From NCBI GenBank assembly GCA_002373815.1, contig DFKH01000083.1, forward strand, positions 2,376 through 66,375: a stretch of 64,000 bases of DNA, in the 5' to 3' direction. Source of the DNA: Alphaproteobacteria bacterium UBA3650. GTDB lineage: Bacteria; Pseudomonadota; Alphaproteobacteria; CAAHEQ01; UBA3637. The notes under the pieces were generated by a model. It was given only the letters and a program-made list of their open reading frames with translations. It had not been told where the DNA came from and did no database searches. Shown one piece after another: positions 6,281-63,813 of the stretch. Numbering within the stretch: position 1 is the first letter of the stretch; each line of letters begins with the position of its first letter. Both the position numbers and the translations under genes were made by a program.

Positions 6281-6739
6281 ATGAAAGAATATGACAAGAA
6301 AGTACGCGCAGAAATGCAAAAGTGGATGTCTGTGCAAGAAGCAAATTACAACATAGGGATTACCGTTGTCTTTAATAAGGATAATATTACAGAACAAGAG
6401 GCTTGGAGATACCTCAAAAATGCTTTTGGATATTATTATCGCAAGACACTTGGAAAAAAATGGTACTTAAAAAAGGACAAACAGTATGCGTTCATTGGTT
6501 GCAAAGAAATGGGCAAATATGGCGTCAATTTGCATTATCATCTTATGTTGGCTTTGGTACCTTATTCTTTTTGTGCCTTTATAAAAATGAATCGGCTCTT
6601 AAATAAGGGGTTGCGTAAATATATTTTGTCTGGCCATGTATTTTGTTGGCCTTTAATGGAAAAAGGATGGGGAGCTTACTTATCAAAAGAGGTTAAGCCG
6701 AACACAATCAGCCTTTTTGCACAAAAAGATTTGTTTTAA
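6281..6739 (+). CDS. small HUH-endonuclease-like (Rep-like) protein
   Basis: Three HUH motifs in canonical order: motif 1-like GITVVF, motif 2 LHYHLML (H-u-H-u-u-u), motif 3-like YLSKE (Y..K). Lies directly downstream of the integrase. Confidence 0.4.
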   Translation: MKEYDKKVRAEMQKWMSVQEANYNIGITVVFNKDNITEQEAWRYLKNAFGYYYRKTLGKKWYLKKDKQYAFIGCKEMGKYGVNLHYHLMLALVPYSFCAFIKMNRLLNKGLRKYILSGHVFCWPLMEKGWGAYLSKEVKPNTISLFAQKDLF

Positions 6740-12514: not shown

Positions 12515-13174
12515 TTACTCACTAACTAAATTATCACCTGGACCTTGCGGCGCCATTGGAGAGGCAGGTTGTTGTCTGGCCTGTTGTGGTTGTGCCACCG
12601 GACGGCCTTGCTGTTGTATTCCCTCTTGATCGGGGTTTTGTGCTGCCACCATACCATACAACAACTTATGATTTAAATCATCTTCCAAAGCCGTTTTCCT
12701 GAGAACTGGATTCTTATTTAAATACCACAGCAAATTGCGGCCAAAATCGTCTGTTGCTGATAAGTTAGCACCCGCAGCTTCTAATAACTCCATAATTTGT
12801 TTATTTGGGGCATAATATGCTGCAAACAAAATCAAAGGAATTTGTTTTGGAGCACCTACAATCGGAAACGCATCCAACGGAACAACAGCATTTGCTCGAT
12901 TTTGATCTTGGCGCAAAATAGCTTCTAGCACATCTGGATTTCCACGACGGATTGCCAATTGGGTTAAGGTTCCGCCACAACGCACTTGTTCGTCAAACAC
13001 CACACCCCGTTGAATCAGTGCTTGAATTTCCTCAGCCCCTCTTGCATTTACAATTAAATTTTGAAGCGGCGTTAAAGCACACTCCCCTGCCTTTTGAGCC
13101 AATGAAGGCGTAGCAATCAAAGCACACACAGACAATAATAATAATTTTTTCATGGAATTCCCCCTTTTTATCAA
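12515..13174 (-). CDS. secreted ankyrin-repeat protein
   Basis: Signal peptide MKKLLLLSVCALIATPSLA. Ankyrin-like repeats (GGTLTQLAIRRGNPDVLEAIL..., PLILFAAYYAPNKQIMELLEAAGANL...). Pro/Gln-rich C-terminal tail. Confidence 0.65.
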   Translation of the reverse strand: MIKRGNSMKKLLLLSVCALIATPSLAQKAGECALTPLQNLIVNARGAEEIQALIQRGVVFDEQVRCGGTLTQLAIRRGNPDVLEAILRQDQNRANAVVPLDAFPIVGAPKQIPLILFAAYYAPNKQIMELLEAAGANLSATDDFGRNLLWYLNKNPVLRKTALEDDLNHKLLYGMVAAQNPDQEGIQQQGRPVAQPQQARQQPASPMAPQGPGDNLVSE

Positions 13175-27254: not shown

Positions 27255-27617
27255 TTAAGATTTGAGTATTTTATCTATTGTTGTAAAAAACGATCCAATA
27301 GAAATGGGCTTAGAAATGTAATCGTCACATCCCGCCTCTAATGCCTTATCCGCATCTTGTTTTAAGGCGAAGGCCGATACCGCCACAATTTTGGGCTGTT
27401 TTATGGACATTTTCCGTATTTGTTGTGTAATTTCTAAGCCTGAGACAGAGGGCAATTGAATATCCATCAAAATCAGGTCTGGCTTTTTTTTAGCCACCAA
27501 ATCTAATGCACTCGGGCCATCTGTTGCTTCTAAAATCGTATGTTTTCTTGTTGTCAATAAATCCACAAACAAGCGTCTATTTAAATCATTATCTTCCACT
27601 ACTAATACTGTGCTCAT
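27255..27617 (-). CDS. divK: single-domain response regulator, DivK-like
   Basis: VLVVEDNDLNRRLF...PDLILMDIQLPSVSGLEIT...YISKPIS closely parallels DivK. Confidence 0.65.
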   Translation of the reverse strand: MSTVLVVEDNDLNRRLFVDLLTTRKHTILEATDGPSALDLVAKKKPDLILMDIQLPSVSGLEITQQIRKMSIKQPKIVAVSAFALKQDADKALEAGCDDYISKPISIGSFFTTIDKILKS

Positions 27618-28423
27618 CTGACATTTTTCCTTTTCTGTTTTTCATATTCTCGTTGGGCTTGGTACAATTCTCGACCTTTTAATCCTAAAAACTCCTCTTT
27701 TGTGAGTTTCTTTTTTTGTAGCTGCCATCGCTCATCGTTTGGAAAGTGAGTTTTGATCATTTCTTCTTTGTCCGTCAAAAACCACTCATCATTTACAAAA
27801 CGACCAGAGCGAGGCAATTTGACATCTGAATTTTTCTTTTTTCTCTCTTTGATCGTTTTTTTATACTCCTTCGCCTTGGTGGTATCTCCCAAACTATTTG
27901 TCCCCTCTCCATCCATCGCCCATGTTGGATCTACATATTCCCATTCACGATTTATTTGAACAGCATTCCACGCGTGACCTGCCCCATCTTTCATCTCTTT
28001 TAAAGTCATTTCATGTCCTGCGTGTCCGCTAATTACAACAGCTTTCAAGCCTGCCATTTTTGCCATTTTTTCATAAAGTGATGCAATATCTCCACACACG
28101 CCAATACGTGTTTCTAAAATGTCATTGTTGAGAATAAACAAATTTTTATCTTTTTTCTTAGTCCGATCTAAATCATCATCAATCGCATTTGCTTTAAAAT
28201 CATCGTAATCAATGTTATGCACAATCCATGCCAAAATCACACGAGCCTTCTCTGCATCTGTTTTATATGGTTTTGTTAAATATCGCACTAATTGAGGCAA
28301 TCCGCTTTTCGTTCGTAACGGTGGGGCATCATGAGCATACTTATCAATCGCCGCATAATCTACAGCCTCAGCACAAAATGCCCACAAGCACACAATTCCC
28401 AAAAGAAATAACTTTTTCATCAT
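27614..28423 (-). CDS. secreted transglutaminase-like cysteine-peptidase superfamily protein (paralog 1)
   Basis: Signal peptide MMKKLFLLGIVCLWAFCAEA. Transglutaminase core GVCGDIASLY...AGHAWNAVQI...YVDPTW (Cys/His/Asp). Confidence 0.65.
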   Translation of the reverse strand: MMKKLFLLGIVCLWAFCAEAVDYAAIDKYAHDAPPLRTKSGLPQLVRYLTKPYKTDAEKARVILAWIVHNIDYDDFKANAIDDDLDRTKKKDKNLFILNNDILETRIGVCGDIASLYEKMAKMAGLKAVVISGHAGHEMTLKEMKDGAGHAWNAVQINREWEYVDPTWAMDGEGTNSLGDTTKAKEYKKTIKERKKKNSDVKLPRSGRFVNDEWFLTDKEEMIKTHFPNDERWQLQKKKLTKEEFLGLKGRELYQAQREYEKQKRKNVR

Positions 28424-28467
28424 ATTTATGACCATAAACCTCTTTATACCAAAAGGCAAGAATAAAA

Positions 28468-29301
28468 TCAAAGTTGGTCCACAAACTGTTTTAAGGACGA
28501 ATGACAACTTTTTCTTAAAAACTCGTCGAAAGTGACACGTCGTTTTTGAAGTTGCCAACGCCGTTCAAATGGAAAATGGGTTTGAATTATTTTTTCTTCA
28601 TCTACCAAAAACCATTCATCTAATACTTTCTTTTGAACGCCTTTTATGGTATCAACATTTTGTTTTCGCTTAAGTTGTCTTTCAATTTGTTGAGCTTCCC
28701 TCAGGCTATGAGCGTAAATGATACGCCCTTGCAATGCCCATGTTGGATCTATAAAACGCCAAACACCATTTATTTTGACAGCGGTCCACATATGAGCTTC
28801 AGATGTTTCAAAATCTTGTTGCGAATCGCAAGCATAACCTTGAATGATTTCCACCTCTAAACCAGCTAATTGACACATATGTTGGTATAATTTTGCAATA
28901 TCCTTGCATATCCCTTTTCTAGTTTTTAAGGTTTTTTGCAATGTGTTTTCATCATGTAATTCCTTAAGGTTTCCTCGTTTTAGGACAAGTTGTCCTGTAC
29001 GTGGATTTGTTTCAACCTCTAAGGAAATTTCAATATCAGCCGCTTCTTTTCCATCCGCAATCCGCTTTAATCTTTCTTTGTCATAATTGATATTATAAAC
29101 CAACCATGCCAACAAAACACGTGCTTTTTCTTCGTCTGTTTGATAGGGCTTAGTCAAATACTTCACTAATTTAGGCAAGCCATTATCTGTACGCAATGGC
29201 GGAGCATTTTTTGCATATGTATCGACAGCAGCATAATTCGGCTTTGCAAAGCTTGATACCCCCATCAATACTAAACATAAAAATATTAAAACATTCTTCA
29301 T
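28468..29301 (-). CDS. secreted transglutaminase-like cysteine-peptidase superfamily protein (paralog 2)
   Basis: Signal peptide MKNVLIFLCLVLMGVSSFA. GICKDIAKLY...EAHMWTAVKI...FIDPTW. Colinear similarity to paralog 1 at both N and C termini. Confidence 0.65.
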   Translation of the reverse strand: MKNVLIFLCLVLMGVSSFAKPNYAAVDTYAKNAPPLRTDNGLPKLVKYLTKPYQTDEEKARVLLAWLVYNINYDKERLKRIADGKEAADIEISLEVETNPRTGQLVLKRGNLKELHDENTLQKTLKTRKGICKDIAKLYQHMCQLAGLEVEIIQGYACDSQQDFETSEAHMWTAVKINGVWRFIDPTWALQGRIIYAHSLREAQQIERQLKRKQNVDTIKGVQKKVLDEWFLVDEEKIIQTHFPFERRWQLQKRRVTFDEFLRKSCHSSLKQFVDQL

Positions 29302-29523
29302 ATGATGTGTATATATCAAAATTAAACACAAAACTCAAGTTTTCTTTCCATTTTAAAAATACCTTGCTATTTATTTTTTTTCTACCTATAATGACCTTGT
29401 CTTTGACAAAAGACGACCTATAGGTTTTTGATAAAAGTTCTCTTTTATTAATAGGCCTTGATGGCGGTACTGTCGAATTTAACAGCCGATGATAAGGCAA
29501 ATTAATAAAGGAGTATAGACAAT

Positions 29524-30328: not shown

Positions 30329-31276
30329 ATGAAGGTATGGGTTTTGGCAGATGATCGTGCTGGTAACGTAAATCAATTATTGGGTATTGCAGAGGCTTTA
30401 AAAGTTCCCTATGAACGCAAAGAGATTCGTTATAATAGGTGGATTCACTTACCTAACTGGCTACGAGGCCGCACTTTTATCGGATTGGACTCCAAGTATA
30501 AAAAAGATTTATTACACGATTTTCCAGATGTTATTTTAAGTGCAGGACGACGTAGTTTCCCCATTGCAAGAGCAATCAAACGTCTGAGTAAAGGAAAATC
30601 AAAAATTGTGCAATTAATGAATCCTTTAAACGGCGCCTATGGTGCAGATTTAATTGTTTTACCTTTACATGATAACTATCAAGGAAAAGCCCAAAATGTT
30701 ATGCAAGTATTGGGGACACCTCATCGTGTCACAGCTCAAAAATTGGCTGATGAAAAAGCGCATTGGAAAAACATTATGAAACAGTATCCTCCCAAGCGTT
30801 TAAGCTTGATTGTTGGTGGAGCTACTAAAAACAACCCTTTCACCATCGACATGGCCGATGCTTTGGTGCAAGCAGCGAAAGATTTGAAACCTGCTTCCGT
30901 TTTGGTGACGACCTCTCGTCGCACACCAAAAGAGGTGGTGGAAAGATTACAAAAGCAATTGCCTAAACCATGCTTTTTCTATCGCTTTGGTGATAAAACT
31001 GAGAACCCTTATTTTGGCCTTTTAGCATGGGCGGATAAGATTATTGTGACAGGAGATTCCATGTCTATGTGTACTGAATGTTGCGCAACGGGTGTTCCTG
31101 TTTTTATTTATGCTCCTGATGACATGATGAGTGCAAAACACAAGCGTTTCCATCAAAGTTTATACACAGCTGGCGTTGCTGCCCCTGTGGGGGGAAAAAC
31201 ACCTAAAAAAACGCAATCGATTAATCCTGCAGATGAAATCGCGGCACGCATTAAGAAACTGTTCACTAACAAATAA
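30329..31276 (+). CDS. ELM1/GtrOC1-like DUF1022 glycosyltransferase-fold protein
   Basis: N-terminal VWVLADDRAGNVNQLLGIAEAL is the conserved start of the alphaproteobacterial 'mitochondrial fission ELM1-like' family. Confidence 0.6.
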   Translation: MKVWVLADDRAGNVNQLLGIAEALKVPYERKEIRYNRWIHLPNWLRGRTFIGLDSKYKKDLLHDFPDVILSAGRRSFPIARAIKRLSKGKSKIVQLMNPLNGAYGADLIVLPLHDNYQGKAQNVMQVLGTPHRVTAQKLADEKAHWKNIMKQYPPKRLSLIVGGATKNNPFTIDMADALVQAAKDLKPASVLVTTSRRTPKEVVERLQKQLPKPCFFYRFGDKTENPYFGLLAWADKIIVTGDSMSMCTECCATGVPVFIYAPDDMMSAKHKRFHQSLYTAGVAAPVGGKTPKKTQSINPADEIAARIKKLFTNK

Positions 31277-41362: not shown

Positions 41363-42238
41363 ATGAACATAAAACAACTATTTTTTACGGGATTTTTGGG
41401 TGTTCTTGCGGTTTGTTCTGTTTCCGCAAACGCTTCTCTTTATGTCTGTCAAAAAGGACGTTGTGATTATGCAATGGATGATATGAGCTTAAAGCCGTGG
41501 ATTCATCAGTTACACACTTTTTTTAAAACGCCAAATGCTCGTATTGATTTTTGCGAATCTGATACGAAACATGTATGTTTAAAAAGTGGTTTAAGTTGGG
41601 TTGCAAAATCCCCTTTAACCGAGATACATTTTTCCATTCCTGTTGCAAGGACAATTCCAAACAAAAGGACTTTATTGATTGATTATTTAGTCTCTGCGAA
41701 CGCTTATTTGCCTACTTGTAGTTTTAGCCCAAGTACGTTTGAGCCTGCTGACAATCATACCATTCGTCTGGTATCAAATGCTTTTGAATGTCAATTGACT
41801 GGAGTGGGTCGGACAAACCTGCAAAATACTTTTTTCATTGATTTTATTGATTTTGATAACTCTGTCATTGGGGGATCTTATACCATCCAAACACATGGCG
41901 AAATTTCAGGAACTGCTGCTGGTTATACGTTGATGAAATTCAGAGATGGTAATACCTTGCTACCCCTTGTTCCGCAGCCATATTATGGTGAAATTCCTGC
42001 TGCACCAGATGCGCGTCAAGCCAAACAAATTGCAAAACAAATCAATACGCCTGAACAAGTTCAAGAACCTGGTACAATGGATAAGTTTGTAACTGGCGTG
42101 AAAGATTGGTGGACACAATTGAAAGAGTCCTTTAATATGGATAAAAAACACCGGCGTTCCCCACAAGATGAGCCATCATGGTGGGATAATTTCTCAGATA
42201 CTTTTATGAAGATCATTTATTTGGAACCTCTAGAATAA
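41363..42238 (+). CDS. secreted hypothetical protein
   Basis: Signal peptide MNIKQLFFTGFLGVLAVCSVSANA. Several Cys residues. No recognised domain. Confidence 0.45.
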   Translation: MNIKQLFFTGFLGVLAVCSVSANASLYVCQKGRCDYAMDDMSLKPWIHQLHTFFKTPNARIDFCESDTKHVCLKSGLSWVAKSPLTEIHFSIPVARTIPNKRTLLIDYLVSANAYLPTCSFSPSTFEPADNHTIRLVSNAFECQLTGVGRTNLQNTFFIDFIDFDNSVIGGSYTIQTHGEISGTAAGYTLMKFRDGNTLLPLVPQPYYGEIPAAPDARQAKQIAKQINTPEQVQEPGTMDKFVTGVKDWWTQLKESFNMDKKHRRSPQDEPSWWDNFSDTFMKIIYLEPLE

Positions 42239-42247
42239 GGATAGGAT

Positions 42248-43513
42248 ATGTCAAAAAATATAGTTATTTCCCGTTTATCGAATGGTATTCGTGTTGTAAC
42301 AGACACACAAGCTCAAGCTGATTCTGTTACCTTAGGTGCCTGGGTTGGTGTCGGATCAAGGTTTGAAAAAAAATCTGAAAGTGGGATCTCTCATTTTTTA
42401 GAGCATATGGCTTTCAAAGGCACCACTTCTCGTTCAGCCTTACAAATTGCCGAGGAAATTGAGCGTGTGGGCGGTTTTATCAATGCTTATACAGGACAAG
42501 ACGTAACAGCCTATCATGCAAGAATGTTAAAAAAGGATATGGACATCGGCTTAAATATTATCGCCGATATTACGCAACACGCGACAATGGATGAAAAGGA
42601 ATTAAACACAGAAAAAGGTGTGATTATTCAAGAAATCAATATGTATAAAGATCAACCCCATTATGTTGCAGAAACAAATTTTGAGGCCACTGCTTATCCT
42701 AATCAACCCATGGGGCGTGATGTCGCGGGTGATCCCAAAGTTATCCAAGAGATGACACCACAAAAAATGTTGGATTATGTTCATTCTCATTATGCTACGG
42801 ATAGAATTATTATCAGTGCTGTAGGACCTATTCAACATGATGTTTTTACAAAAAAATGCGAAAAATTATTTAGTGATTTTGGCCTCAAAAAAACACCCAC
42901 TCCGGAACGAGCTTGTTATCAAGGTGGTTTTAAGTACGTCAAAAAACCCCATGAGCAAGTCAATTTAATTATGGGCTTTGAAGGTGAGTCTTATACTTCT
43001 CCAGATGTGTGGAAAGCCAAGTTGTTGGCTGCTATTTTAGGAGGAGGCATGACCAGTCGGTTATTCCAAGAAATTCGTGAAAAACGGGGACTTGTTTATA
43101 CTATTCATGCTTATTCTTCAGCTGAAACAGACACAGGGATTTGGGGTATTTATGCAGGTACCGGAGAAAAAGAATTAAAGATTTTAATGCCTGTTCTGTT
43201 GGACGAACTAAAAAAAGCAACACACAAAATTACCCCTGACGAAGTTAAGCAAGCTCAAACACGCTTGGAGGCCGCTTTATTGATGCGCAATGAGGACATT
43301 TCAGAACATGCCGATATGAACGCCATTGAAATGTTACGCTACGGCAAAGTACGTTCTAAGGCTTCGCTGGTTAAAGCCATTCAATCGGTCAGTGCAAAAG
43401 ATGTCCAACATTATGCCGAAAAGTTGTTTTCGACAACTCCAACGGTTTCCTGTTTGGGGCCCATTAAGCATATGATGGATTATAAAGATATTGTCAAAAG
43501 TCTGAAAGGCTGA
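42248..43513 (+). CDS. M16 family zinc peptidase (pitrilysin/MPP-like)
   Basis: Inverted zinc motif HFLEHMAFKGT. 421 aa. Confidence 0.8.
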   Translation: MSKNIVISRLSNGIRVVTDTQAQADSVTLGAWVGVGSRFEKKSESGISHFLEHMAFKGTTSRSALQIAEEIERVGGFINAYTGQDVTAYHARMLKKDMDIGLNIIADITQHATMDEKELNTEKGVIIQEINMYKDQPHYVAETNFEATAYPNQPMGRDVAGDPKVIQEMTPQKMLDYVHSHYATDRIIISAVGPIQHDVFTKKCEKLFSDFGLKKTPTPERACYQGGFKYVKKPHEQVNLIMGFEGESYTSPDVWKAKLLAAILGGGMTSRLFQEIREKRGLVYTIHAYSSAETDTGIWGIYAGTGEKELKILMPVLLDELKKATHKITPDEVKQAQTRLEAALLMRNEDISEHADMNAIEMLRYGKVRSKASLVKAIQSVSAKDVQHYAEKLFSTTPTVSCLGPIKHMMDYKDIVKSLKG

Positions 43514-44135: not shown

Positions 44136-47100
44136 TCAAGGGCTGTATTCTCTTTTTGCAGCGACCACATTAATACAAGGTTTTCCACTTTGACATGTTG
44201 CATTACACGCCTCTGTACAACCAGCATTTCCGTTTGTTACTGAGAAGGTACATTTACCACCATCTCCCAAGAATGAGACATTATCATCGGATGTAGTTAT
44301 CACAGCACGACCACAAGACTCCCCGTCACCGCCTGTACAGCTACTCCCTATCGTACAATATTGGCTGTCATTTGGATTTGTATCTCTCTTTCCACTGTAG
44401 TTGCTACACCATTTTTTAGTTGCTCGCCCAGAACCAGAACTTGTTGTTTTATCTAAAATGGCGCCAGCACATGAAAATTGCGCCCAGTCACCATATCTTG
44501 TCGTTCCTGTAAATTGCAATTGATATAACATATTATTGACTGTGGTAAATTCAAAAAGTGTCGTTGTCTGACATGCTTGTGCCCCACATGCACTTTTTAT
44601 CCCTCCTGAGATGTTGGATGTATTAGTCGCTGTGCATTTTTGTTCATTGCCAATAACACCATATCCACTTTTACACACACACTTTTTGGTAGCCGCATTA
44701 TATGTAGAATTATCGTCACATTGCACGCATTTCTTTTGTGTTGCATCATAATGATGATTTGCAGGACATACCTCGCATTTATGAGATGTCGTATTGCATA
44801 TTGGCAAACTTTGAGGACATGAAGCAGAATCATTGCTCACATAATTTTTGGTACATGTACATTGTCCATTACTGCATGTCGGTGCCTTTTGTGGACATTT
44901 ACCATCTCCATCTGCTTTTGGCGTCGAATAATTATCCTTACATGTACATAAACCGCCACCATCTGTTTTATCACAGTATGGCTTTAATTCATTGCTACAT
45001 TTTCTCGTTCCTGAAGAAGCTCCAAGATTGGCTGTACACTCCACACACTTGCCAGAACTCTCATTAAAATTCGGCTTTCCACTTGGACAAGCGCAAGTGT
45101 GATTTGTGGTATTACATATTTTATCACCCTCACATTCATCATCAGCGGTGCATTCAACACAGACTCCATTTCCATCGGATCCGGCTTCCCAGCAAACAGG
45201 TTTACCCGTAGTTTTTGCTGATTGCCATGGTGAATAGTTTTGTGCAGAACTTTCAGATGCTGTATCTGTTGTTGAAAATGATGCCACCCCATACTCCAAG
45301 GATTCAACTTTATTGCAACCAATATCTGTCCACGCTCCAGAGATAGAATTATAACATGTCACACATTTTTTCGTAAAAATATTAAATACTGGCGTTGTTC
45401 CCGAACAATTGCATTCCCCTGTTTCAGGGTTAAAATCAACGCTACCACAATCTGTACTGCATATACCCTGCTCTCTTAGACAATGCATCCTATCCACTGA
45501 TTTTTCTTTACAATCACCATCGTTGGTGCATTCTGAACATCCGCGTCCATTTGTCTGTTGAACGCAATAAGGCTGTTCCACTGTTTCACCTGCTACCGAC
45601 CCTGTTTTATTTTCACACCCTTTGTTTTTATCTTTTAATTCGGTATATAACACGCACGTCTCGCATGTCCATGAGTTGGGATCACATATCTTTCCTGCGC
45701 CACAATGTGAATCTTCACTACATTCATGACATTCCCCTTCTACATAGTGTGGCAAGCTACCATCCCCAATTTCAGCACACGTCTTACATCCATTTTGTGT
45801 ACATTTTTGCCCCTCTTCACAACTTGAATTCTTACAGGCCACACAAACATGATTTTCAGTATCACAATATGGTTTGGAAGAATCTTGTCCTGCACACCAT
45901 GCGTCTGTCACACATCCATTGATACAAGCACCATCCGCTATACTATATTGTCCTACTTCGCAACCACAATATTTTTGTATTTCCGATTCTGTTGGGGTAG
46001 GCAGTACATCAGACGTATAGCCTGTCATTTCCGTTCCAGAACAGCATATAAATCCCCCTGAAATATCAGTTGGAGCACGAGTTTTACCTTCTCCACAACC
46101 ACAAAGGCGAATGGCTTTGGATTTAGACTCATCAGAATCGTCCATTCCCTCATATGTGCCAGCATCAGTATCGCAACAAACACCCTCCGTTTTGCTTCCC
46201 GATGCACAGCCGCATACGTTGGCATCTACTGTATTATAACCGTTTTTATCCCATTTTTTATGTTTTAAACAACAGTCATTCGTTTCCTCATTTATCGTTC
46301 CTCCCTCTGGGCAACCACATTTTTCGTCTTTACATGTGACGCATAACCATGATATATCTTCTGCCCACTCACCAGATGTTTTATCTTCGTTCCAAATGTA
46401 TTCATGACCATTTTGACAGCAAATGTAGTTACCATCATCCTCCACTGTTACACTGCCTTCTGGACATTGGATAGGACATTCACCTTCCTTACATCCAATC
46501 ACATCTCCACACCAATTAAAGCCCAAATTTTTACATGCTGCTTCCGAACAATTTTTACGTTTTTCATCATTATTACATTTACAATTTTCGTCTTCATTGT
46601 CTGAAACAATCGTTGCACTTTGCATCCGATAATCTCCAACACAGCAATATAACAGCCCATCCTTAAAATCTAATTTAAATAGTTCATCAACTTTATATGT
46701 TGTCTCATTTTTTGTAACCGTCTTTGGGCAATTACACAATGAGCTTTCACCTTTGTCAGAAATGCTATCACTTGCACCCGTTGCAACACTTTCAACTTGG
46801 CGGTGCTCATGACAGCAGACATAATAATTTCCTGGGTTTGATAATATCATAGATTGGTAGATTCCATCTCCATAACAACCACATTGGGGCATCAGCCTAT
46901 TTGATGACCATGAGCCATTTTCATAAATCAGTCCACTTATACTTACACCTGGGGTTGTTGATGTACTACAACAATACTGGTTACTTCTATATGTCAAGAA
47001 ATTTCCGCCTGCTGTTGTACATATTGTTGATGGATCTTCTTCATCCTCAGAAGATGTTTCATTTTCTTCATCTTCGGCAGATGATAGAAATAATGCATCT

Positions 47101-47327
47101 GTTTCTTCTTCTGAAGAAAGCTCAGCAACAACGGGGTCTGTCAAGGAACCATCTGTCTCAACGATAGGAGAACTTAAAGCCATACTAGCCGAACTTAAGG
47201 ATGTGGCGATATCTGTCAATTGTGCTTCCGAATTAAAGCGAAAACGGATTGCATCTACATCAGCTTTTGTAACAGATGCTTCTCCAAAACACAAAAGAGC
47301 CAATAAAATACAATTCCTTATGCGCAT
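44136..47327 (-). CDS. giant secreted cysteine-rich repeat protein (eukaryote-like extracellular Cys-repeat architecture)
   Basis: Signal peptide MRIRNCILLALLCFGEASVTKA. Acidic Ser/Glu/Asp-rich linker. Then ~900 aa dense in CxC, CC and CxxC pairs with recurring ~20-aa units such as GKCVEC, KKCVQC, KKCVTC and GECNCSG. Confidence 0.6.
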   Translation of the reverse strand: MRIRNCILLALLCFGEASVTKADVDAIRFRFNSEAQLTDIATSLSSASMALSSPIVETDGSLTDPVVAELSSEEETDALFLSSAEDEENETSSEDEEDPSTICTTAGGNFLTYRSNQYCCSTSTTPGVSISGLIYENGSWSSNRLMPQCGCYGDGIYQSMILSNPGNYYVCCHEHRQVESVATGASDSISDKGESSLCNCPKTVTKNETTYKVDELFKLDFKDGLLYCCVGDYRMQSATIVSDNEDENCKCNNDEKRKNCSEAACKNLGFNWCGDVIGCKEGECPIQCPEGSVTVEDDGNYICCQNGHEYIWNEDKTSGEWAEDISWLCVTCKDEKCGCPEGGTINEETNDCCLKHKKWDKNGYNTVDANVCGCASGSKTEGVCCDTDAGTYEGMDDSDESKSKAIRLCGCGEGKTRAPTDISGGFICCSGTEMTGYTSDVLPTPTESEIQKYCGCEVGQYSIADGACINGCVTDAWCAGQDSSKPYCDTENHVCVACKNSSCEEGQKCTQNGCKTCAEIGDGSLPHYVEGECHECSEDSHCGAGKICDPNSWTCETCVLYTELKDKNKGCENKTGSVAGETVEQPYCVQQTNGRGCSECTNDGDCKEKSVDRMHCLREQGICSTDCGSVDFNPETGECNCSGTTPVFNIFTKKCVTCYNSISGAWTDIGCNKVESLEYGVASFSTTDTASESSAQNYSPWQSAKTTGKPVCWEAGSDGNGVCVECTADDECEGDKICNTTNHTCACPSGKPNFNESSGKCVECTANLGASSGTRKCSNELKPYCDKTDGGGLCTCKDNYSTPKADGDGKCPQKAPTCSNGQCTCTKNYVSNDSASCPQSLPICNTTSHKCEVCPANHHYDATQKKCVQCDDNSTYNAATKKCVCKSGYGVIGNEQKCTATNTSNISGGIKSACGAQACQTTTLFEFTTVNNMLYQLQFTGTTRYGDWAQFSCAGAILDKTTSSGSGRATKKWCSNYSGKRDTNPNDSQYCTIGSSCTGGDGESCGRAVITTSDDNVSFLGDGGKCTFSVTNGNAGCTEACNATCQSGKPCINVVAAKREYSP

Positions 47328-47369
47328 AATTTCATTCTAATAAAAACTATATAAATTGCAATAAAAAAA

Positions 47370-48497
47370 TTAGCCACCACAAAGGGCCAATAAAATGCCT
47401 GCGGCAATGGCTGAGCCGATACTGCCGGCCACATTTGCTCCCATCGCATGCATTAGCAAGTGATTATTTGGATTTTCTTCTTGTCCTAATTTCTCACTCA
47501 CACGAGCCGCCATTGGAATGGCACTCACCCCAGCAGAACCTATCAATGGATTGATTTTATTTTTCGTAAACAGGTTCAAAAGTCTTGCCATCAAAACGCC
47601 ACTTGCTGTTCCGATACAAAAAGCGACAACACCCAATGTTAAAACTACTAATGTTTGCGTTTTTAAGAATAATTCTGCTGATAGTTTTGACCCCACAGAA
47701 ATCCCAAGCAAAATCGTTACAATATTCATCATTTCATTACTGGCACCTTTGGCAAGCCTATCTGCCACACCTGATTCTTTCAATAAATTTCCAAACATCA
47801 ACATACCGATTAGTGGAATAGCAAGCGGAATAAAGAGTGCTGTCAGCACAATTACCATAATTGGAAAAATAATTTTTTCGCGTTTACTTACTTCCCGTAA
47901 TTGTTGCATTTGAATTGCTCGTTGTTTTTTTGGGGTACACAAACGCATAATCGGTGGTTGAATCACAGGCACCAAGGCCATATAAGAATAGGCGGCCACC
48001 GCTATGGCTCCCAATAATTCTGGTGCTAGCTTACCCGCCAAGAAAATAGAAGTTGGCCCGTCTGCCCCACCGATAATGGCAATACTGGCTGCTTGTTTTA
48101 AGGTTAAAGCTAAATTTGGGAAAAGATGGCTTAACGAAAGCGCCCCCAAAAATGTACCAAAAATGGCAAACTGAGCCGCCCCTCCCAGCAAAGCTGTTTT
48201 TGGATTGGCTAGCATTGGCCCAAAATCTATCATCGCGCCAACGCCCATAAAAATCAAAAGCGGGAAGATCCCTGTTTCAATGCCCGCATGATACATATAA
48301 TACAATAAACCACCTTCCTCGGTCATCCCTGCACCCGGACAATTGGACAGCAATCCCCCAATCGCAATCGGAATTAAAAGCAATGGCTCAAATTGTTTTT
48401 TAATCCCCAAATACAACAGCACAAAGCAAATCAGCATCATGACGCCTTGTCCCATTGTTATATGCATCAAACCCAAGCTATTTATGATTGCGTTCAT
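47370..48497 (-). CDS. oadB: sodium-ion-translocating decarboxylase beta subunit
   Basis: 375-aa polytopic membrane protein with OadB/GcdB-like sequence. Confidence 0.85.
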
Positions 48498-49757
48498 TTA
48501 TTCCCCTTTCAGCCACTTACAAATGGTTTTATAAGATGGCGTTTTACATTTTGGCCCCATAATGGCTACCGTTGGCGCAGTAGAAAACATCTGCTTTGCC
48601 ACACGTTTAACGTCCTTTAACGTCACAGATTTATACATTTTACACATTTCCGCAGTATCAACCAATTTTCCCAAACTGGCAAACCCAACCGCCAAACCAT
48701 CCGCCCCCTTTGACAAGTGATCGTCTTGTAACAACTCTTTTGTCATTATATTCTTTTTGGCCAATTCAACTTCCTGTCTTGTTACTGTTTGAGTGAAATT
48801 AGCATATTCTTTGGACACAATTTTCAAAACGTCATTGACATTTTCTGGGCTAACCTGCAAACGAATTCCATAAACGCGAATGGAATCTTTTATATATCCC
48901 ATGGGCATAATGGAATAAGCCCAACCTCTTCCACGAATCAATCGATATAATCTGGAAGTAAATCCCTTGCCCAAAATATGCAGCGCCACACTCGCTGCAA
49001 AATAATCCTTTGATCCACATTTTGGCGATTCAAACCCCATAAAAATCCAATCTTGATTTTGATTGCGAATTTTGGTTTTCATCCCACCTTCATACTTGGC
49101 CTCGATTCTGGGTAATGTTACTTTTCGCGTAAATTTTGTCAGCAGTTTTTCACACAATCCTACAAACTTTTTATGTGTAATAGCCCCTTGGGCTGCACAC
49201 ACCAAAATATTATTTGCAAAATGTTCTTTCCAATATTTTCGAACTTGTTTTGCCGTCAATTTGGAAACACTTTCTTTGGTGCCTATACATGTATATGCTA
49301 TTTTTGTTCTAGGATAGGCTGTTTTGAGCCATAATTCTCCAAAAACAGTATCTGGTTTATCCCAAACCATATCTATTTCGCGCAAGACAACTTGCTTTTC
49401 TTTTTCAAATCTTTCCTCGGGAAAAGTGCTTTCTTGCAACATCTCTGTCCATAATTTCAATGCTGGCTCCACATCCGATTTCAGCACTCGAATGGGATAA
49501 CGATTTGCCCATGATGATGTCAGTCCATCATAAGCAGCGCCCAAATCCGCTAATTTTTGTGTCAAAACATCCGTCGATTTTTTGTTTGTCCCCTCAAAAA
49601 TCATGTGTTCCATAAGGTGAGTAATACCCTTTTCAGATGTCTTTTCATGAGCTCCGCCACAATTAAAACACAGACACATTCCAACGGCCCGCGCACCTTT
49701 ACGCTCGTCCGTCAAAACACGAATCCCGTTTTTAAGTGTCGTACATTTAATCGCCAT
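48498..49757 (-). CDS. M16 family zinc peptidase (second copy), inserted between oadA and oadB
   Basis: HLMEHMIFEGT inverted zinc motif. 419 aa. Abuts oadB and oadA with no intergenic gap. Confidence 0.8.
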   Translation of the reverse strand: MAIKCTTLKNGIRVLTDERKGARAVGMCLCFNCGGAHEKTSEKGITHLMEHMIFEGTNKKSTDVLTQKLADLGAAYDGLTSSWANRYPIRVLKSDVEPALKLWTEMLQESTFPEERFEKEKQVVLREIDMVWDKPDTVFGELWLKTAYPRTKIAYTCIGTKESVSKLTAKQVRKYWKEHFANNILVCAAQGAITHKKFVGLCEKLLTKFTRKVTLPRIEAKYEGGMKTKIRNQNQDWIFMGFESPKCGSKDYFAASVALHILGKGFTSRLYRLIRGRGWAYSIMPMGYIKDSIRVYGIRLQVSPENVNDVLKIVSKEYANFTQTVTRQEVELAKKNIMTKELLQDDHLSKGADGLAVGFASLGKLVDTAEMCKMYKSVTLKDVKRVAKQMFSTAPTVAIMGPKCKTPSYKTICKWLKGE

Positions 49758-51700: not shown

Positions 51701-51844
51701 TCCTCCCCCTATTGACAGATTTTAGGAAAATTTTTGCGCAATGTCAATGATTTTATGAAACAAAAAGGTACCTGTTTTTCCTATTTCTTGACAAATAATG
51801 GCCTTCGTGTTATACTGATTTATGTATTTTTCAAAGGAGGACTC

Positions 51845-53350
51845 ATGCCCCGAAACAAACATCTTCAAAATGGTGATTTTATAAAGCTTGCCCCTTCAGG
51901 ATTGGAAGAACCCAAAGTCAAGTCCTCGGATGATTACATTCATCTTGAGAATGCCCTTTTCCCTCGCTCTCAAAAGCCGCGTCGCACAAAAGGCATCAAG
52001 CGTGTAGCTGGTGTTGCTGCTGCGCTGACTCTTTTGTCCGCAGGAGGCATGAAATCTTGTTCCGATACTGAAAATACACAAGCAACGCAAGAAGCCAGAG
52101 ACAAAGCACGTATCACTTGGCTTGCAGAAACAAGCGGTCAACAACTTCACTTTCCTGCAATTTCGCAAGAGGCAATCTATGACACTTTTCAAGCTTCTGA
52201 GGTAGCTGCTGAACAAAATACGCACAATCACATTTTACGTGTTTTTCAAAATATTCCAACAGCAAAGGGTATAGAGCCTCAACAATTAAACCTTTGTGCT
52301 TCTGCCTTTAAAACCTTTACCACATCACCCAAAGGTGTTTGTTTTGCCCCCAATGTTCCAGAATCTTGTTATACAAATTTTTTAGACATGGCTCTTTGTA
52401 TGCCTTCATCAGATTTACAATATCTAGCCAATAATGAAATTGAAAAAATGTTGTTTGCTCCAGAAATTTTGGCTGCCAAAAAACTTTTGCTTAAAAGTCC
52501 TACAAATACTCAAGACTTTGCGCAACGTTCTTTTGAGTGTGGATTTAGTTACAAATTGCATCAAGCCATGTTGAAACCGATTAAAAAACATGAAGGTAAT
52601 GTATACTTTATTTATTGGGACAAAACTGGCGCTCCAACTCTCTCTTCTGGTATCAATTTATCTGTATATCATTTTCTTTTGAAGTACATTCGCTTTCAAA
52701 ATTCTTCAAAGATACAAAATATTTTATATCCCAATAATCCCGAATTGCGATCAAAAGATCGTTACATAATACTCACACGCGACAATTTAAATACACTTAC
52801 AAAGTATGTCATGGAAAACGACAAAAAAAAGCTTGATAATGCCAACAATTTTAAATCTCTTTATCATTTAAATGTCCACCCACAAGACAGAGCCAAACTG
52901 GACCAATATCTTGATCTTATTTTAAGCGGCGTTATACGGACAGCCGCAACTGACATGGGAATTGGCAGACAAGAACGTGGGCCCGAACTGTTTTTTGGCA
53001 CACCAGATCATCCTATCCCAATTGAAGCTCCGAAAGTTGCTACAGATATCGCTTTCAGAGGAGGAAGTCTTAAAAAATCAAATGATTTTAGGAAAGCTTA
53101 CTGCGAACATGATTGGAAAACAGTTCGCGAAGAATGTGTTCCAGGCTTTTTTAAATCATCCAATTTTTGGCGTCGTCATATACACGGGCATCGTTTTAGC
53201 TGGCGACAATCTCAAATAGCACGCATTATGAATCCAAATTGGTTTACACGAAATACCTGGATTTTTGGTTTGTTAACACTCTCTTTTTTGGTGTCGCAAC
53301 GCAAAAAGATTGTGCAATTCAAGCAAAAACGTTCAAAGGGCAAGATTTAA
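51845..53350 (+). CDS. hypothetical protein with C-terminal transmembrane segment
   Basis: ATG at 51845 preceded by AAAGGAGG. No recognised domain. C-terminal WIFGLLTLSFLVS hydrophobic helix followed by a basic tail. Confidence 0.45.
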   Translation: MPRNKHLQNGDFIKLAPSGLEEPKVKSSDDYIHLENALFPRSQKPRRTKGIKRVAGVAAALTLLSAGGMKSCSDTENTQATQEARDKARITWLAETSGQQLHFPAISQEAIYDTFQASEVAAEQNTHNHILRVFQNIPTAKGIEPQQLNLCASAFKTFTTSPKGVCFAPNVPESCYTNFLDMALCMPSSDLQYLANNEIEKMLFAPEILAAKKLLLKSPTNTQDFAQRSFECGFSYKLHQAMLKPIKKHEGNVYFIYWDKTGAPTLSSGINLSVYHFLLKYIRFQNSSKIQNILYPNNPELRSKDRYIILTRDNLNTLTKYVMENDKKKLDNANNFKSLYHLNVHPQDRAKLDQYLDLILSGVIRTAATDMGIGRQERGPELFFGTPDHPIPIEAPKVATDIAFRGGSLKKSNDFRKAYCEHDWKTVREECVPGFFKSSNFWRRHIHGHRFSWRQSQIARIMNPNWFTRNTWIFGLLTLSFLVSQRKKIVQFKQKRSKGKI

Positions 53351-58113: not shown

Positions 58114-59418
58114 TCAGAAGTTATCTGAGGACTCACCTACAACAACTACATATTCTATTATATCGCCCCTTGATCGTGCTTCTTCAGCTTTTTGACGCGC
58201 TTGTTCCTCCTCGGCCAACCTTTTAGCATACAATTCTGACGAGCCCTTGGTATAAACACCAATGAAATCCCCATTGTTGATCATAAACACAAACGGCCGA
58301 TCGGCAATAAAGGGGATGGACCAATCTTGACGCTCTAATCTGGACTCAAAAAACGCAGCCGTCAACATATCAATCACTGTTGCGGCACTAGCCTCTGTTC
58401 CTTTTTCATTCACACCAATGTTCGCCTGATGAATAATTTTATCCACATAGTAAGGCTTATCACTCAAACCACCCAATTCAGCTGTCGCTGGATCAAAAAC
58501 CTTCTCAATACCCCATTTTTTAAAGAATTCTGGCATATTTGTAATCTTATAATCCAAATTGAATTTAGGTAATCGCAACATCACAGGCGCTTTATGATAC
58601 TTTAGATACAAATCTCCTGCTTGTAAATCTTGAATGAACTTATTAAAATCTACACCTTCTTTTGGCAAGAAAATGTACATAGCGTCCCCGTTTTTATAAG
58701 GAAGTCGTACAGACTGCATTTGCTCATCTTGATAATAATCCACTATCTGCCCTTCATAACGCATCATATCCACTTTGTCCAACTGTCCATCCAGCGAATG
58801 AAAATCATCGATCAGCGTACCATTTTCATCAAAAAACGTTTCCCACTCATCCTTAAAATACACCGTATTCACCAAAAAAAGACGACCTCCTTGTTCCAAA
58901 TTTTCCTCGTTTAATAAATGCGAAATACGTCCTTTTGTCTTTTCCTGAATCCATTCATTGATAACCGAGGTATTGTGAGGCAGAGGCTTTACCTCAGAAA
59001 ACAACTCATTTTTCATTTTCTCTTGATATTCTGGTTTAAAGTCATTACCCCAGATGGAATTATTGATTTCAAATTGTTTTTTTTGACTTATATAGGATTG
59101 CAACGCCTGATTCACAGATTGTTTTCTTCGACTTATAAAGGGTTGCGATGCCTGATTCACATAGGGAACATTTAAACGTAAAATAATATTACCCAGTTCC
59201 TTTAAACTCTCTCCCTCAGCCCCATTGGTCAACAAAGCTGCGGCAGCATAAACGGATAGTGGCGACACCACAAAATTATCTTTTTTGTTTTCAAAAGCTG
59301 TCTTTAAAAATTTTGTGGCCAAATATAAATCTTGATCTTCTGGCGAAAAACGAAGCTCTTTTGCTTCAATCCCCAATGACAAAAATAATGAACAAAATAA
59401 AATAATTTTTTTAAACAT
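58114..59418 (-). CDS. secreted serpin (inhibitory-type reactive-centre loop) with C-terminal extension
   Basis: Signal peptide MFKKIILFCSLFLSLGIEA. Hinge GTEASAAT followed by the conserved IPFIADRPFVFMI strand. ~45-aa charged C-terminal tail. Confidence 0.8.
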   Translation of the reverse strand: MFKKIILFCSLFLSLGIEAKELRFSPEDQDLYLATKFLKTAFENKKDNFVVSPLSVYAAAALLTNGAEGESLKELGNIILRLNVPYVNQASQPFISRRKQSVNQALQSYISQKKQFEINNSIWGNDFKPEYQEKMKNELFSEVKPLPHNTSVINEWIQEKTKGRISHLLNEENLEQGGRLFLVNTVYFKDEWETFFDENGTLIDDFHSLDGQLDKVDMMRYEGQIVDYYQDEQMQSVRLPYKNGDAMYIFLPKEGVDFNKFIQDLQAGDLYLKYHKAPVMLRLPKFNLDYKITNMPEFFKKWGIEKVFDPATAELGGLSDKPYYVDKIIHQANIGVNEKGTEASAATVIDMLTAAFFESRLERQDWSIPFIADRPFVFMINNGDFIGVYTKGSSELYAKRLAEEEQARQKAEEARSRGDIIEYVVVVGESSDNF

Positions 59419-61593: not shown

Positions 61594-62490
61594 ATGTATG
61601 ATAATATTGAATTTGTTATTTGCGCCGCAGGAGAATGTACCCGCAACTTTCCTCATTCAAAAGCCATTGCTCATAAATCGTTATTACCCATGGGAGATGT
61701 GCGCATCATTGATTATACCTTACAAGATATTGTTCGGGCTGGGGGGCGCCACATTACTTTTGTTTGTTCTAATCAAAAAGTCATTGATGATTTTAAGCAT
61801 GCTTTAGCAACGGATACTCAGACAGAGCAAAAATTGCGTACCAAAGGCAAAAATGACATTGCTGATATTTTAAAAAGCACTTTTTTACCAGAGGATATTG
61901 ATTTAAAGTTTGTGATTCAAGATGAACCTTTAGGTACTGGACATGTTTTATATGTTGCCCGAGAAGCCATTCAAAAGCGTCACGTTGTTTTAATTTTCCC
62001 TGACGATATCATTATATCCAAAAATCAGAAGCAATCCCATTTCAAACGCCTTGTGGATACTTTTTTAAAGAACCCAAAAACAATTTTGATCACAGGTCTA
62101 TGGCGAGAAGATGTTAGTAACAATGCTATATTAGTCAATAATCGCATTATAGAGAAACCCAAAAATCCAACATCTCATATTGCAGGCATGTCCCCCAATG
62201 TTATCCCGAACGAGATTATTCAATTTTTGGCGGAACAGGGACCCGAAAAAGTTCAAAAAGCGCGTGAAGAACATAAAGAATGGATTTATCAAGATTCCGT
62301 CAATAGCTTTTTGGATCAAGGCGGAGAAGCCCAAGGGTTTAAGGTGGAAATGTTTTTAAAGGCGGATGAAGATCAAATGCTGGATACAGGTAATTTAGCT
62401 TTATATGAACAATGTCAACTCAAAATGCTCCTTGAACATTCTCAATACAAAGAACAAAACAAGGAATTTATCAAAAAAATATTGGATTAA
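61594..62490 (+). CDS. sugar-nucleotidyltransferase family protein (GalU/NTP_transferase-like)
   Basis: N-terminal VICAAGECTRNFPHSKAIAHKSLLPMGD resembles the G.GTR..P.TK..PK..LP nucleotidyltransferase motif. Confidence 0.55.
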   Translation: MYDNIEFVICAAGECTRNFPHSKAIAHKSLLPMGDVRIIDYTLQDIVRAGGRHITFVCSNQKVIDDFKHALATDTQTEQKLRTKGKNDIADILKSTFLPEDIDLKFVIQDEPLGTGHVLYVAREAIQKRHVVLIFPDDIIISKNQKQSHFKRLVDTFLKNPKTILITGLWREDVSNNAILVNNRIIEKPKNPTSHIAGMSPNVIPNEIIQFLAEQGPEKVQKAREEHKEWIYQDSVNSFLDQGGEAQGFKVEMFLKADEDQMLDTGNLALYEQCQLKMLLEHSQYKEQNKEFIKKILD

Positions 62491-63020
62491 CGTAACATTA
62501 AACAAACCCTTCCATTGTTCTGATCGCTACAATCTGTTTCACAAGCAGAATAGTCGGATCCGTAGTCATAGGCTGCGTCTGCAGCACTTTTACCATCTTC
62601 AATTGCGACCATATTGGCATAAGACATAATCACCAATCTTGAACAGGCTATATCTGGCAACTCTGTCATCATGATTCCAAATCGATCTGCCTTAGCGATA
62701 CCCTTGTCTGGTGAAATAATTTTTATGGCTCCAAATGGCCCCAGCACACCATCACTATCCATAGGTTGAGCCCCAGATAAAATATCATTGTTTAAAACAG
62801 CGTCTGCAATGGTTTCGGCTTTTGGATACCCTGCACTCCATGAATATAAATCAATGATTCCTTGAGATAATTCTTCTGCATCATTAAAGGTTGCATTGAT
62901 TTTATACATATTCACACCAAAGCCAATCCCCGCAATAGCACCATACATGATAACCCCCATAATGGCCAGAACGCCTAACATTTCCAACATAGTTCGTCCA
63001 GATTCGTTATGATTTTTCAT
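62487..63020 (-). CDS. type IV pilin-like protein with prepilin (class III) leader
   Basis: MKNHNESG|RTMLEMLGVLAIMGVIMYGAI has Gly-1, Glu+5 and a hydrophobic helix. C-terminal Cys pairs. Start trimmed from the ORF-track extension. Confidence 0.55.
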   Translation of the reverse strand: MKNHNESGRTMLEMLGVLAIMGVIMYGAIAGIGFGVNMYKINATFNDAEELSQGIIDLYSWSAGYPKAETIADAVLNNDILSGAQPMDSDGVLGPFGAIKIISPDKGIAKADRFGIMMTELPDIACSRLVIMSYANMVAIEDGKSAADAAYDYGSDYSACETDCSDQNNGRVCLMLR

Positions 63021-63813
63021 GCGTGCAATCTCCTTTTTCTTTTTTATACCCCGAAAATCCAAAAGTTTCAAGCATTTTTTCTAATCCCTTTTCATTTAAG
63101 ATTTTTTGTTGCTTTTTTGAAAAAGGAATCTGCAGCAAATCATTTGTCAATACGCCATATTTTTTCATCATTTTCAATGTTGTGTTCGCTCGAGGGCCTG
63201 TTATTATTTTAAACATTTCATCTCGACGTCTGTCCATTGATAGGGTGGATAGGTATGGTATAATTTTCGGCAGGGCTTGTTCCACTTGTTTATCCATTTT
63301 TTTTGTCCCCATTTTTGCCCAAAAACGAAAATATCTGAGCAATCTTAGATAATCTTCTTGCATCCGTTTGCTTGCATTTCCCACAAAGCGTACATTATGC
63401 GCTTGTAAATCTTTTAATCCATTTACATAATCATAGATTGTGCCATTCACATCTGCATAAAGCGCATTGATTGTAAAATCACGTCGGAGTGCATCAGTTT
63501 TCCATACTTTTGTGAATTTGACGACGGCATGTCGTCCATCCGTTTGAACATCTTTTCTTAAAGTTGTAATTTCAAATGGAGTCCCATTCACTTTGGCCAC
63601 AATTGTTCCAAATACTCGTCCAATTTCCAGATAGGCAATGTTATTTTTTTTCAATTGCTCTATTACTTCATCAGGTGTTAAAGTGGTTGCCATATCTCGA
63701 TCTTGAAAATGTTTATGCATTAAATAATCGCGCACACATCCGCCGACCAAACGCACTTTTCCATCTAGAATATCATATAAAAAAAGTGATTTTTCATCCC
63801 ATAATTTTTGCAT
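63007..63813 (-). CDS. cca: CCA-adding tRNA nucleotidyltransferase (PolyA_pol family)
   Basis: VRLVGGCVRDYLM...DRDMATT...RRDFTINALY head-domain motifs. Start trimmed to MQKLWDEK. Confidence 0.8.
   Translation of the reverse strand: MQKLWDEKSLFLYDILDGKVRLVGGCVRDYLMHKHFQDRDMATTLTPDEVIEQLKKNNIAYLEIGRVFGTIVAKVNGTPFEITTLRKDVQTDGRHAVVKFTKVWKTDALRRDFTINALYADVNGTIYDYVNGLKDLQAHNVRFVGNASKRMQEDYLRLLRYFRFWAKMGTKKMDKQVEQALPKIIPYLSTLSMDRRRDEMFKIITGPRANTTLKMMKKYGVLTNDLLQIPFSKKQQKILNEKGLEKMLETFGFSGYKKEKGDCTHEKS

Follow-up and report, generated by a model that had tools for sequence, protein, structure and literature searches.

The minus strand of the 64,000-nucleotide (nt) stretch analysed here (contig DFKH01000083.1 of Alphaproteobacteria bacterium UBA3650; the whole stretch is hereafter the window) carries, at 44136..47327, a Cys-rich open reading frame (ORF) that the ORF listing gives as open for 1063 codons from an ATG. 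We propose that its product is an extracytoplasmic protein, native to and restricted to one lineage of uncultured rumen alphaproteobacteria, that forms an adhesin-like or coat-like stalk with a variable tip, and we give this reading a probability of about one half. The proposal is carried by an export signal, the module make-up of the protein, an even parity of its Cys residues, native codon usage and synteny, a mosaic and replaced C-terminus, and the presence of the same modules behind pilin leaders; disulfide formation, passage of the outer membrane, the orientation of the protein and an adhesive function are what we infer beyond these features. Surface proteins made of Cys-rich repeats, and fibrillar-adhesin-like stalks that end in a variable tip, are familiar as a general kind. 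The family itself and one of its building blocks, the region A module (see below), are undescribed: all relatives are unnamed, there is no Pfam or NCBIfam model and no relative has been solved, as an earlier reading made from the letters alone (the sequence-only reading) had surmised in suggesting that a characterised bacterial homologue might not exist.

The boundaries between the parts of the protein were taken from an alignment (A3) of 15 full-length relatives. The gene and its parts, from the N- to the C-terminus of the product, are as follows:

44136..47327, minus strand: complete Cys-rich ORF, 1063 amino acids (aa) plus stop, as judged from the listing, its composition and independent contigs
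47262..47327, minus strand: Sec-type signal peptide, aa 1-22, with predicted cleavage after Ala22 (…TKA/DV…)
47130..47261, minus strand: conserved N-terminal segment of the mature protein, aa 23-66 (44 aa), reading DVDAIRFRF…LTDI…SLSSASMALSSPIVETDG
47022..47129, minus strand: acidic Ser/Glu/Asp linker, aa 67-102, of low complexity and of a length that varies among orthologues
45969..47021, minus strand: region A, aa 103-453, about six to seven 'C-P-x-G-G … C-C-x-x-G … Y … C' modules
45312..45968, minus strand: region B, aa 454-672, five 'CxxCxxDxxCx5-9Cx6CxxC' repeats of the Myxococcus Cys-rich-repeat type
45195..45311, minus strand: Cys-free Ser/Thr-rich spacer, aa 673-711, lying between Cys671 and Cys712 (a gap of 41 residues) and differing in length among the sequences of A3
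44634..45194, minus strand: region C, aa 712-898, one further Myxo-type repeat and 'CxCP…[FY][ND]…KKCVxC' units
44139..44633, minus strand: C-terminal domain 'type 1', aa 899-1063, predicted to be rich in strands

The N-terminus combines a basic n-region (MRIRN), a hydrophobic core (CILLALLCFG) and an A-x-A-type site (EASVTKA, followed by DV), and the leader is of the Sec type, not of the Tat type; residues A22, D23 and V24 are invariant in the 15 family members aligned. This is the sole hydrophobic stretch of the protein, and after aa 30 the maximum Kyte-Doolittle score is 0.88. In the linker, 15 of the 36 residues are Asp or Glu, and the net charge of the mature protein is about -65. Both the signal peptide and the acidic linker had been recognised in the sequence-only reading and are borne out by hydrophobicity and composition; that reading had, however, overlooked the conserved 44-aa segment that lies between them. 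The segment is 70-75% identical to that of orthologues whose region A is 29% identical, it is found once per locus and it is confined to the Cys-rich family; on the strength of this conservation, we propose that it may act as an anchoring or sorting element.

Cys accounts for 106 residues of the protein (10.0%), and Ser, Gly and Thr are also abundant. The modules of region A are 35-50 aa long, with four Cys each, and a Cys-knot-like insert is found at aa 249-288. Region B ends in the most conserved motif of the family, TPVFNI..KKCVTCYNSISGAWTDIGC (family form TPV[FW]xI…CVxCYDSISxxWTDLGC), and region C also holds an EGF_2-like pattern, CVCKSGYGVIGNEQKC, at aa 883-898. The sequence-only reading had described a long run of Cys-packed units of about 20 aa ending in KKCVxC or GKCVEC. 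Such units exist, and the endings KKCVTC, GKCVEC, KKCVQC and KKCVC appear in the motif listing, but in four to five copies only (aa 639-658, 745-764, 851-870 and 867-885, with a weaker one at aa 517-536); most of the Cys-rich part is built of two other module types. The three module types are present in four to seven copies each, and the copy number differs among strains and lineages. The count and periodicity analysis that had been suggested with that reading returned the 106 Cys and a spacing that is weakly periodic, with autocorrelation peaks at lags of 16 and 19 (z ~3), and a repeat scan of the Cys-rich gene found no DNA repeats longer than 28 nt. Thus, the modules are old and diverged, and a recent tandem duplication or slipped-strand phase variation was rejected on the same absence of repeats.

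The ORF is real and intact, since the related loci compared include contigs assembled independently on which the protein is identical. The gene appears split in L013, a 93%-identical strain, but the break is a run of Ns in the scaffold, which rules out a pseudogene or a frameshift in that strain.

Several lines of evidence suggest that the Cys residues are paired. Cys occupies 47 of the 60 invariant columns of the alignment, and there is no conserved His among the invariant positions. The number of Cys residues in the mature protein ranges from 94 to 134 among the members and is even in 15 of 16, in three of which this evenness depends on the removal of one Cys with the signal peptide; the parity found after removal of the signal peptide therefore supports the predicted cleavage at Ala22. 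The chance of finding at least 14 even counts among 15 independent sequences is about 5e-4. For the window protein we infer complete pairwise bonding of the 104 mature Cys, which would give about 52 disulfides.

The C-terminal end of the protein behaves differently from the remainder. In a comparison of the window with L013, the flanking DNA is 94-95% identical and aa 67-749 are 93.3% identical; L013 lacks aa 749-857 (108 aa), which represent one 'KKCVxC-to-KKCVxC' super-unit, and the two C-terminal domains share 34.6% identity as proteins and give no blastn match. The C-terminal domain of the window protein, which ends in …AAKREYSP, is instead 71-72% identical to that of relatives P0009 and P0010, whose cores are 37-48% identical to its own. 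Other lineages carry a different C-terminal domain for which no homology to the window type was detected (hhalign probability 0.08%), and a third C-terminal type is purely Cys-rich; conserved Cys residues are found in the C-terminal domains. The length of the stalk changes too: in P0022, the most divergent member (L010 9941..13297, plus strand), a 17-aa unit of region C, 'C-x-x-C-P-x5-TP-[VK]-W-N-G-x-x', is amplified to about 28 copies, as compared to one to five elsewhere. The mosaic and replaced C-terminus, together with the deletion and amplification of units, indicate a conserved stalk of variable length with a recombining, replaceable tip.

The surroundings of the gene bear on its origin. 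The genes next to it are:

42248..43513: M16 peptidase gene, beyond rnhB
ending at 44135: rnhB, convergent with and directly adjoining the Cys-rich ORF
47370..48497: oadB, upstream of the Cys-rich ORF, with a 42-nt spacer between the two
48498..49757, minus strand: M16 peptidase gene, inside the oad operon between oadA and oadB

This arrangement, with the Cys-rich gene between rnhB and the oad operon and an M16 peptidase gene on either side, is the one given in the sequence-only reading and agrees with the ORF listing and the neighbouring genes. The slot between oadB and rnhB is kept at every locus examined, although the proteins encoded there are only 29-50% identical, and at all of these loci the stop codon of the Cys-rich gene abuts or overlaps the convergent rnhB. 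The M16 gene between oadA and oadB is found in most lineages; it is missing from L010 and L016, which retain the Cys-rich gene, so that the two genes are not obligatorily linked. A functional tie of the Cys-rich gene to the oad or M16 genes was accordingly discarded, given these two lineages and the conserved promoter-like element that the Cys-rich gene has of its own. This element, identified in a consensus scan of the spacer, is:

47334..47361, minus strand: promoter-like element, TTGCAA-16 nt-TAGAAT, ending 6 nt 5' of the ATG

The pattern TTG(C/A)AA-16 nt-TA(G/A)AAT in the 42-nt spacer, including the hexamers, their spacing and the distance to the ATG, is common to seven loci (the window, L003, L005, L009, L013, L014 and L016) whose proteins are only 29-40% identical; at L010, the most divergent locus, an AGGA-type spacer stands in place of the pair of -35- and -10-like hexamers. 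No Shine-Dalgarno sequence was found in the 42-nt spacer upstream of the ATG. By its pattern, the spacer suggests that the Cys-rich gene may be transcribed from a promoter of its own into an mRNA that is leaderless or nearly so.

The composition of the gene is that of its surroundings: its GC content (0.404), its GC content at third codon positions (GC3, 0.265) and its correlation in relative synonymous codon usage (0.78) all fall within the range of the neighbouring genes, and a recently transferred island was rejected for this reason. The native codon usage, the conserved synteny and the conserved promoter-like element together point to an old, vertically inherited resident rather than a recent acquisition from a eukaryote.

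As to the distribution of the family, a word-indexed search of 5.8 billion proteins led to six clusters. Searches of this type saturate on Cys-rich words (six to seven proteins were returned), and an exhaustive profile search was therefore needed; made against 1.84 billion representative proteins, it gave 183 hits, of which about 18 are full-length family clusters sharing the N-terminal segment. The gene was found in two of 185,579 species genomes, both of them metagenome-assembled genomes (MAGs) titled 'Alphaproteobacteria bacterium'. Homologues are thus far from widespread, and neither a broad occurrence in bacteria nor a disrupted ORF, the two findings that would have spoken against the sequence-only reading, was encountered. 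A scan of JGI metagenomes revealed three loci, all in dataset 3300033463, which is listed in a paper among cow and sheep rumen datasets, and SRR873603 is a sheep rumen metagenome (PMC4158751); all traceable samples of family members are from ruminants. Alphaproteobacterial MAGs from the rumen have been placed in the uncultured orders RF32 and Rs-D84 and have a reduced metabolism (PMC8992543).

The remaining, partial hits of the profile search cover region A or region B only, and show that the modules are used in other proteins. Modules of the region A type are found in up to 13 copies per protein in other metagenomic proteins, and a hidden Markov model built from 245 modules outside the family matches the window protein six times over aa 148-438 (best independent E-value 1.6e-7). 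Sixteen of the hits begin with a type IV pilin leader, 'GRSMVEMLGVLAIIGVL', and others with ordinary signal peptides. Hits of the region B type (positions 435-555) include lipoprotein-like proteins and proteins of Myxococcota type, for example one from Byssovorax. No Pfam domain covers the modules in any of 50 module-bearing proteins. A type IV pilin-like gene that stands alone is also found in the window, at 62487..63023 (minus strand); it gives weak N_methyl and PilS matches, and its leader, …ESGRTMLEMLGVLAIMGV…, is closely like those of the 16 metagenomic proteins with CPxGG-CC modules. To judge from these leaders and signal peptides, the building blocks of the protein are bacterial, predicted to be extracytoplasmic and, in the pilin fusions, predicted to be displayed on surface fibres.

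Comparisons with named families and structures yielded little. A Pfam scan of the window protein found no family even at E<=10, furin-like, VSP (variant-specific surface protein), EGF and TNFR models included; no autotransporter barrel or OmcB-family profile of Pfam or NCBIfam matched at the same threshold. PDB sequences were searched with profiles of the full-length family, of the core, of the module of region A and of each of two C-terminal types, and none gave a match. The single named similarity is to the NCBIfam model TIGR04201 (Myxo_Cys_RPT), with an E-value of 2.8e-4 and 20.9 bits over two to three stretches, below the cut-off of 25 bits; the same model is matched by nine of the 15 family members (best E 4.4e-7). 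Among these 15 members, only P0022 has Pfam matches, to Ephrin_rec_like above the cut-off (aa 517-561, E 4e-8) and to TNFR_ELAPOR1_6th below it, and P0022 also matches the Cys-rich region of EphB2 in the PDB (E 1.4e-4); in the alignment, the Ephrin_rec_like unit is an insert specific to the P0022 lineage. An AlphaFold2 (AF2) model of the full-length protein from six sequences was unusable, with a predicted local distance difference test (pLDDT) score of 40.7. For the core (aa 330-672, 11 sequences) the score was 79.8, reaching about 80-94 over most of region B, and the model consists of strings of short hairpin modules and small helices. A Foldseek search of the core model against the PDB returned nothing significant (best E 1.0), with local likeness to knottins, EGF and Dkk; the best of these non-significant matches were squash trypsin-inhibitor knottins, whose template modelling (TM) scores, normalised to the inhibitor, were 0.5-0.6 for alignments of 20-35 residues. 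Against BFVD, the core model found only Cys-rich membrane proteins of giant viruses, at TM <=0.17. The label 'furin/VSP/EGF-like' is thus a loose resemblance of pattern.

On the reading that we favour, the protein would be exported unfolded via Sec and its signal peptide removed after Ala22, whereupon the 104 remaining Cys residues would be oxidised to about 52 disulfides. The product would be a long, rigid, very acidic rod, probably resistant to proteases, made of three kinds of small Cys-knotted modules. The 44-aa N-terminal segment and the acidic linker would form the proximal, cell-attached end, and the C-terminal domain of about 165 aa the distal, exposed end; this tip would be swapped between lineages by recombination, under diversifying pressure. 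Such a tip would be expected of a ligand-binding protein or adhesin, or of a determinant that phages, predators or host antibodies recognise at the surface, and an adhesin-like role outside the cell is plausible.

Several points weigh against this proposal. No route across the outer membrane or of anchoring to it was found, the protein having no lipobox, autotransporter barrel or recognised sorting signal as judged from Pfam and NCBIfam scans and hydrophobicity. Nor did the profile scans of Pfam and NCBIfam, or the PDB search with the C-terminal domain, find a known adhesive domain, and the AF2 model of the C-terminal domain has a pLDDT below 50. Expression of the gene is presumed. The disulfides are putative, and one member of the family has an odd number of mature Cys residues. 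Moreover, 52 disulfides would be an odd choice for an extracellular protein in a habitat as strongly reducing as the rumen.

The alternatives that we weighed share part of this evidence. The protein could form a variable protective coat, a functional analogue of the VSPs of Giardia or of ciliate surface antigens, in which a disulfide-rich layer shields the cell from proteases, predators and antibodies and the C-terminus is antigenic, not ligand-binding. This overlaps with the favoured reading, differing only in the role of the tip, and draws on the extreme content and even parity of Cys, the net charge of about -65, the C-terminus replaced between alleles and the nearby secreted serpin (see below), which suggests a protease-rich habitat; we nonetheless consider it rather unlikely, as there is one copy per locus with no cassette repertoire or switching repeats found, no membrane anchor, and no match to a VSP profile. 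That the protein is instead retained by the cell in the periplasm or envelope, for example as a thiol or redox buffer or binding Zn through its CxxC pairs, strikes us as distinctly unlikely. The failure to find an outer-membrane translocation signal, the numerous CxxC motifs and a reducing rumen that disfavours exposed disulfides would all fit, but an even parity across 94-134 Cys suits pairwise bonds better than metal sites of four Cys, the invariant positions are nearly all Cys with no conserved His, and the leader is of the Sec and not the Tat type; furthermore, a hypervariable, recombining C-terminus is hard to square with a housekeeping protein, and the same modules are fused to pilins.

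The sequence-only reading had favoured a eukaryote-like (furin, VSP or EGF type) effector, acquired horizontally by an intracellular bacterium. Its supports are the ankyrin and serpin genes of the same window, the Ephrin_rec_like unit, the sub-threshold TNFR_ELAPOR1 match and the EphB2 match of P0022, and the one EGF_2-like pattern at aa 883-898. We find this very improbable: for the window protein there is no eukaryotic domain model at E<=10, no PDB chain and no structural neighbour, the Ephrin-like unit is an insert of P0022, and pilin-like and Myxococcota-type proteins of bacteria have the modules too. Horizontal acquisition does not agree with the native GC, GC3 and codon usage, nor with an old, conserved synteny in which orthologues of 29-50% identity sit in the same oadB-X-rnhB slot, and nothing in the analysis shows an intracellular lifestyle, the relatives coming from rumen or ruminant metagenomes and the window having genes typical of an ordinary diderm. 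We give equally little credence to a secreted, multi-headed protease inhibitor made of a chain of knottin-like or antistasin-like mini-domains; the squash-inhibitor knottins that headed the non-significant Foldseek matches and the secreted serpin close by bring it to mind, but no inhibitor family profile was matched in the Pfam scans and the variable C-terminal domain and conserved N-terminal segment would be left unexplained. The least credible of all is a polymorphic toxin or bacteriocin, in which a conserved stalk would deliver an exchangeable toxin domain at the C-terminus. The C-terminal domain is indeed swapped between near-identical strains and replaced by unrelated domains in other lineages; however, the Cys-rich gene runs up to or into the convergent rnhB at every locus, which leaves no space for an immunity gene, Pfam scans of the window protein and its relatives found no toxin domain or pre-toxin motif, and the C-terminal domains have conserved Cys residues typical of extracellular binding domains.

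A wider interpretation, which we put forward as speculative and rather doubtful, is that a gut- or rumen-bound, metabolically reduced clade of alphaproteobacteria evolved its own disulfide-knotted surface toolkit, in which CPxGG-CC modules are mounted on a Sec-exported stalk or on type IV pilins and a recombining, cassette-like tip serves strain-specific attachment (to a rumen ciliate, another microbe or the host epithelium) or evasion of phages or antibodies. If so, the system would be a bacterial counterpart of the variant surface proteins of protists, operating with some 52 disulfides in a habitat that is among the most reducing known. Should the favoured reading hold, the protein would represent a new family with a new small disulfide-rich module that has no counterpart in Pfam, NCBIfam or the PDB, put to use at the cell surface by uncultured rumen alphaproteobacteria; the conserved slot with its variable tip would be a strain marker, and the protein a candidate determinant of the attachment partners of reduced-genome bacteria in the rumen. 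A further question would be by what means cells assemble some 52 disulfides in one protein, and maintain them in the oxidised state, when the surroundings are highly reducing. The finding has no bearing on the transfer of genes from eukaryotes to bacteria.

The window also encodes lipopolysaccharide, Lol, stringent-response and two-component genes typical of an ordinary diderm; lpxC, lpxK, kdtA, lolA and a gene for an outer-membrane beta-barrel protein are among them. The ankyrin and serpin genes noticed in the sequence-only reading are both present according to Pfam: the serpin, at 58114..59418 (minus strand), has a signal peptide and an E-value of 2.6e-70, and the ankyrin-repeat protein, at 12515..13174 (minus strand), is small, with an Ank_4 match at E 2.4e-6. 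Beyond the M16 gene on the far side of rnhB, the product encoded at 41363..42238 (plus strand) has 291 aa, starts with a signal peptide and is not matched by any Pfam family; all related loci have a gene in this position (M16-hyp-rsmE), encoding 290-301 aa. A 538-aa ORF at 51734..53350 (plus strand), which runs divergently from the oad operon, is also without a Pfam match; in L003, L005 and L009 its slot is taken by a gene of no known function encoding 457-484 aa. Two adjoining transglutaminase-like ORFs are found at 27614..28558 and 28468..29331 (both minus strand), and a protein of the ELM1 family (Mito_fiss_Elm1) is encoded at 30329..31276 (plus strand). At the start of the window, positions 1..~7700 have a low GC content (0.30-0.33, as compared to about 0.39 elsewhere) and encode an AbiEii-like AAA_21 ATPase, GIY-YIG and UDG-like proteins, a phage-type integrase (5216..6271) and a Rep-like ORF (6281..6739); this stretch is probably an integrated mobile or defence element.

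Among known systems, the Myxo_Cys_RPT proteins (TIGR04201), with which related Myxococcota proteins carrying DUF4215 or DUF11 are associated, share with region B a short unit of about 22 aa, 'CxxC..D..C…C…C'. The window protein has only about five such units, which make up some 10-15% of its length; the Myxo_Cys_RPT proteins lack its N-terminal segment, region A modules and C-terminal domain, and it belongs to an alphaproteobacterium rather than to one of the Myxococcota. With the furin-like, GCC2_GCC3, Ephrin_rec_like, TNFR-like and VSP ladders of eukaryotes it has in common short CxxC units with one aromatic residue, and like them it would be secreted and disulfide-rich. A true Ephrin_rec_like unit, however, is found in P0022 only, as an insert. 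In Giardia, an anaerobe of the gut, VSPs cover the surface with a variable layer that resists proteases; unlike them, the window protein has no C-terminal membrane anchor (transmembrane helix) and no CRGKA tail. Modular type IV pilins overlap with it in their parts, the region A module being present in 16 metagenomic proteins with a class III pilin leader and a pilin-like gene in the window, but the window protein starts with MRIRNCILLALLCFGEASVTKA/DV and has a Sec signal peptide with no G/xxxxE leader; it is thus not a pilin, and shares with the pilins their passenger modules only. Fibrillar adhesins, finally, have stalks of Ig-like or beta-sandwich domains, whereas that of the window protein is built of tiny disulfide-knotted modules, and no recognised anchor or adhesive domain marks it as one of them. 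What the window protein and the fibrillar adhesins share is the plan of the molecule and not family membership, with a conserved part at one end, a variable domain at the other and, between them, a long stalk of repeats whose length varies.

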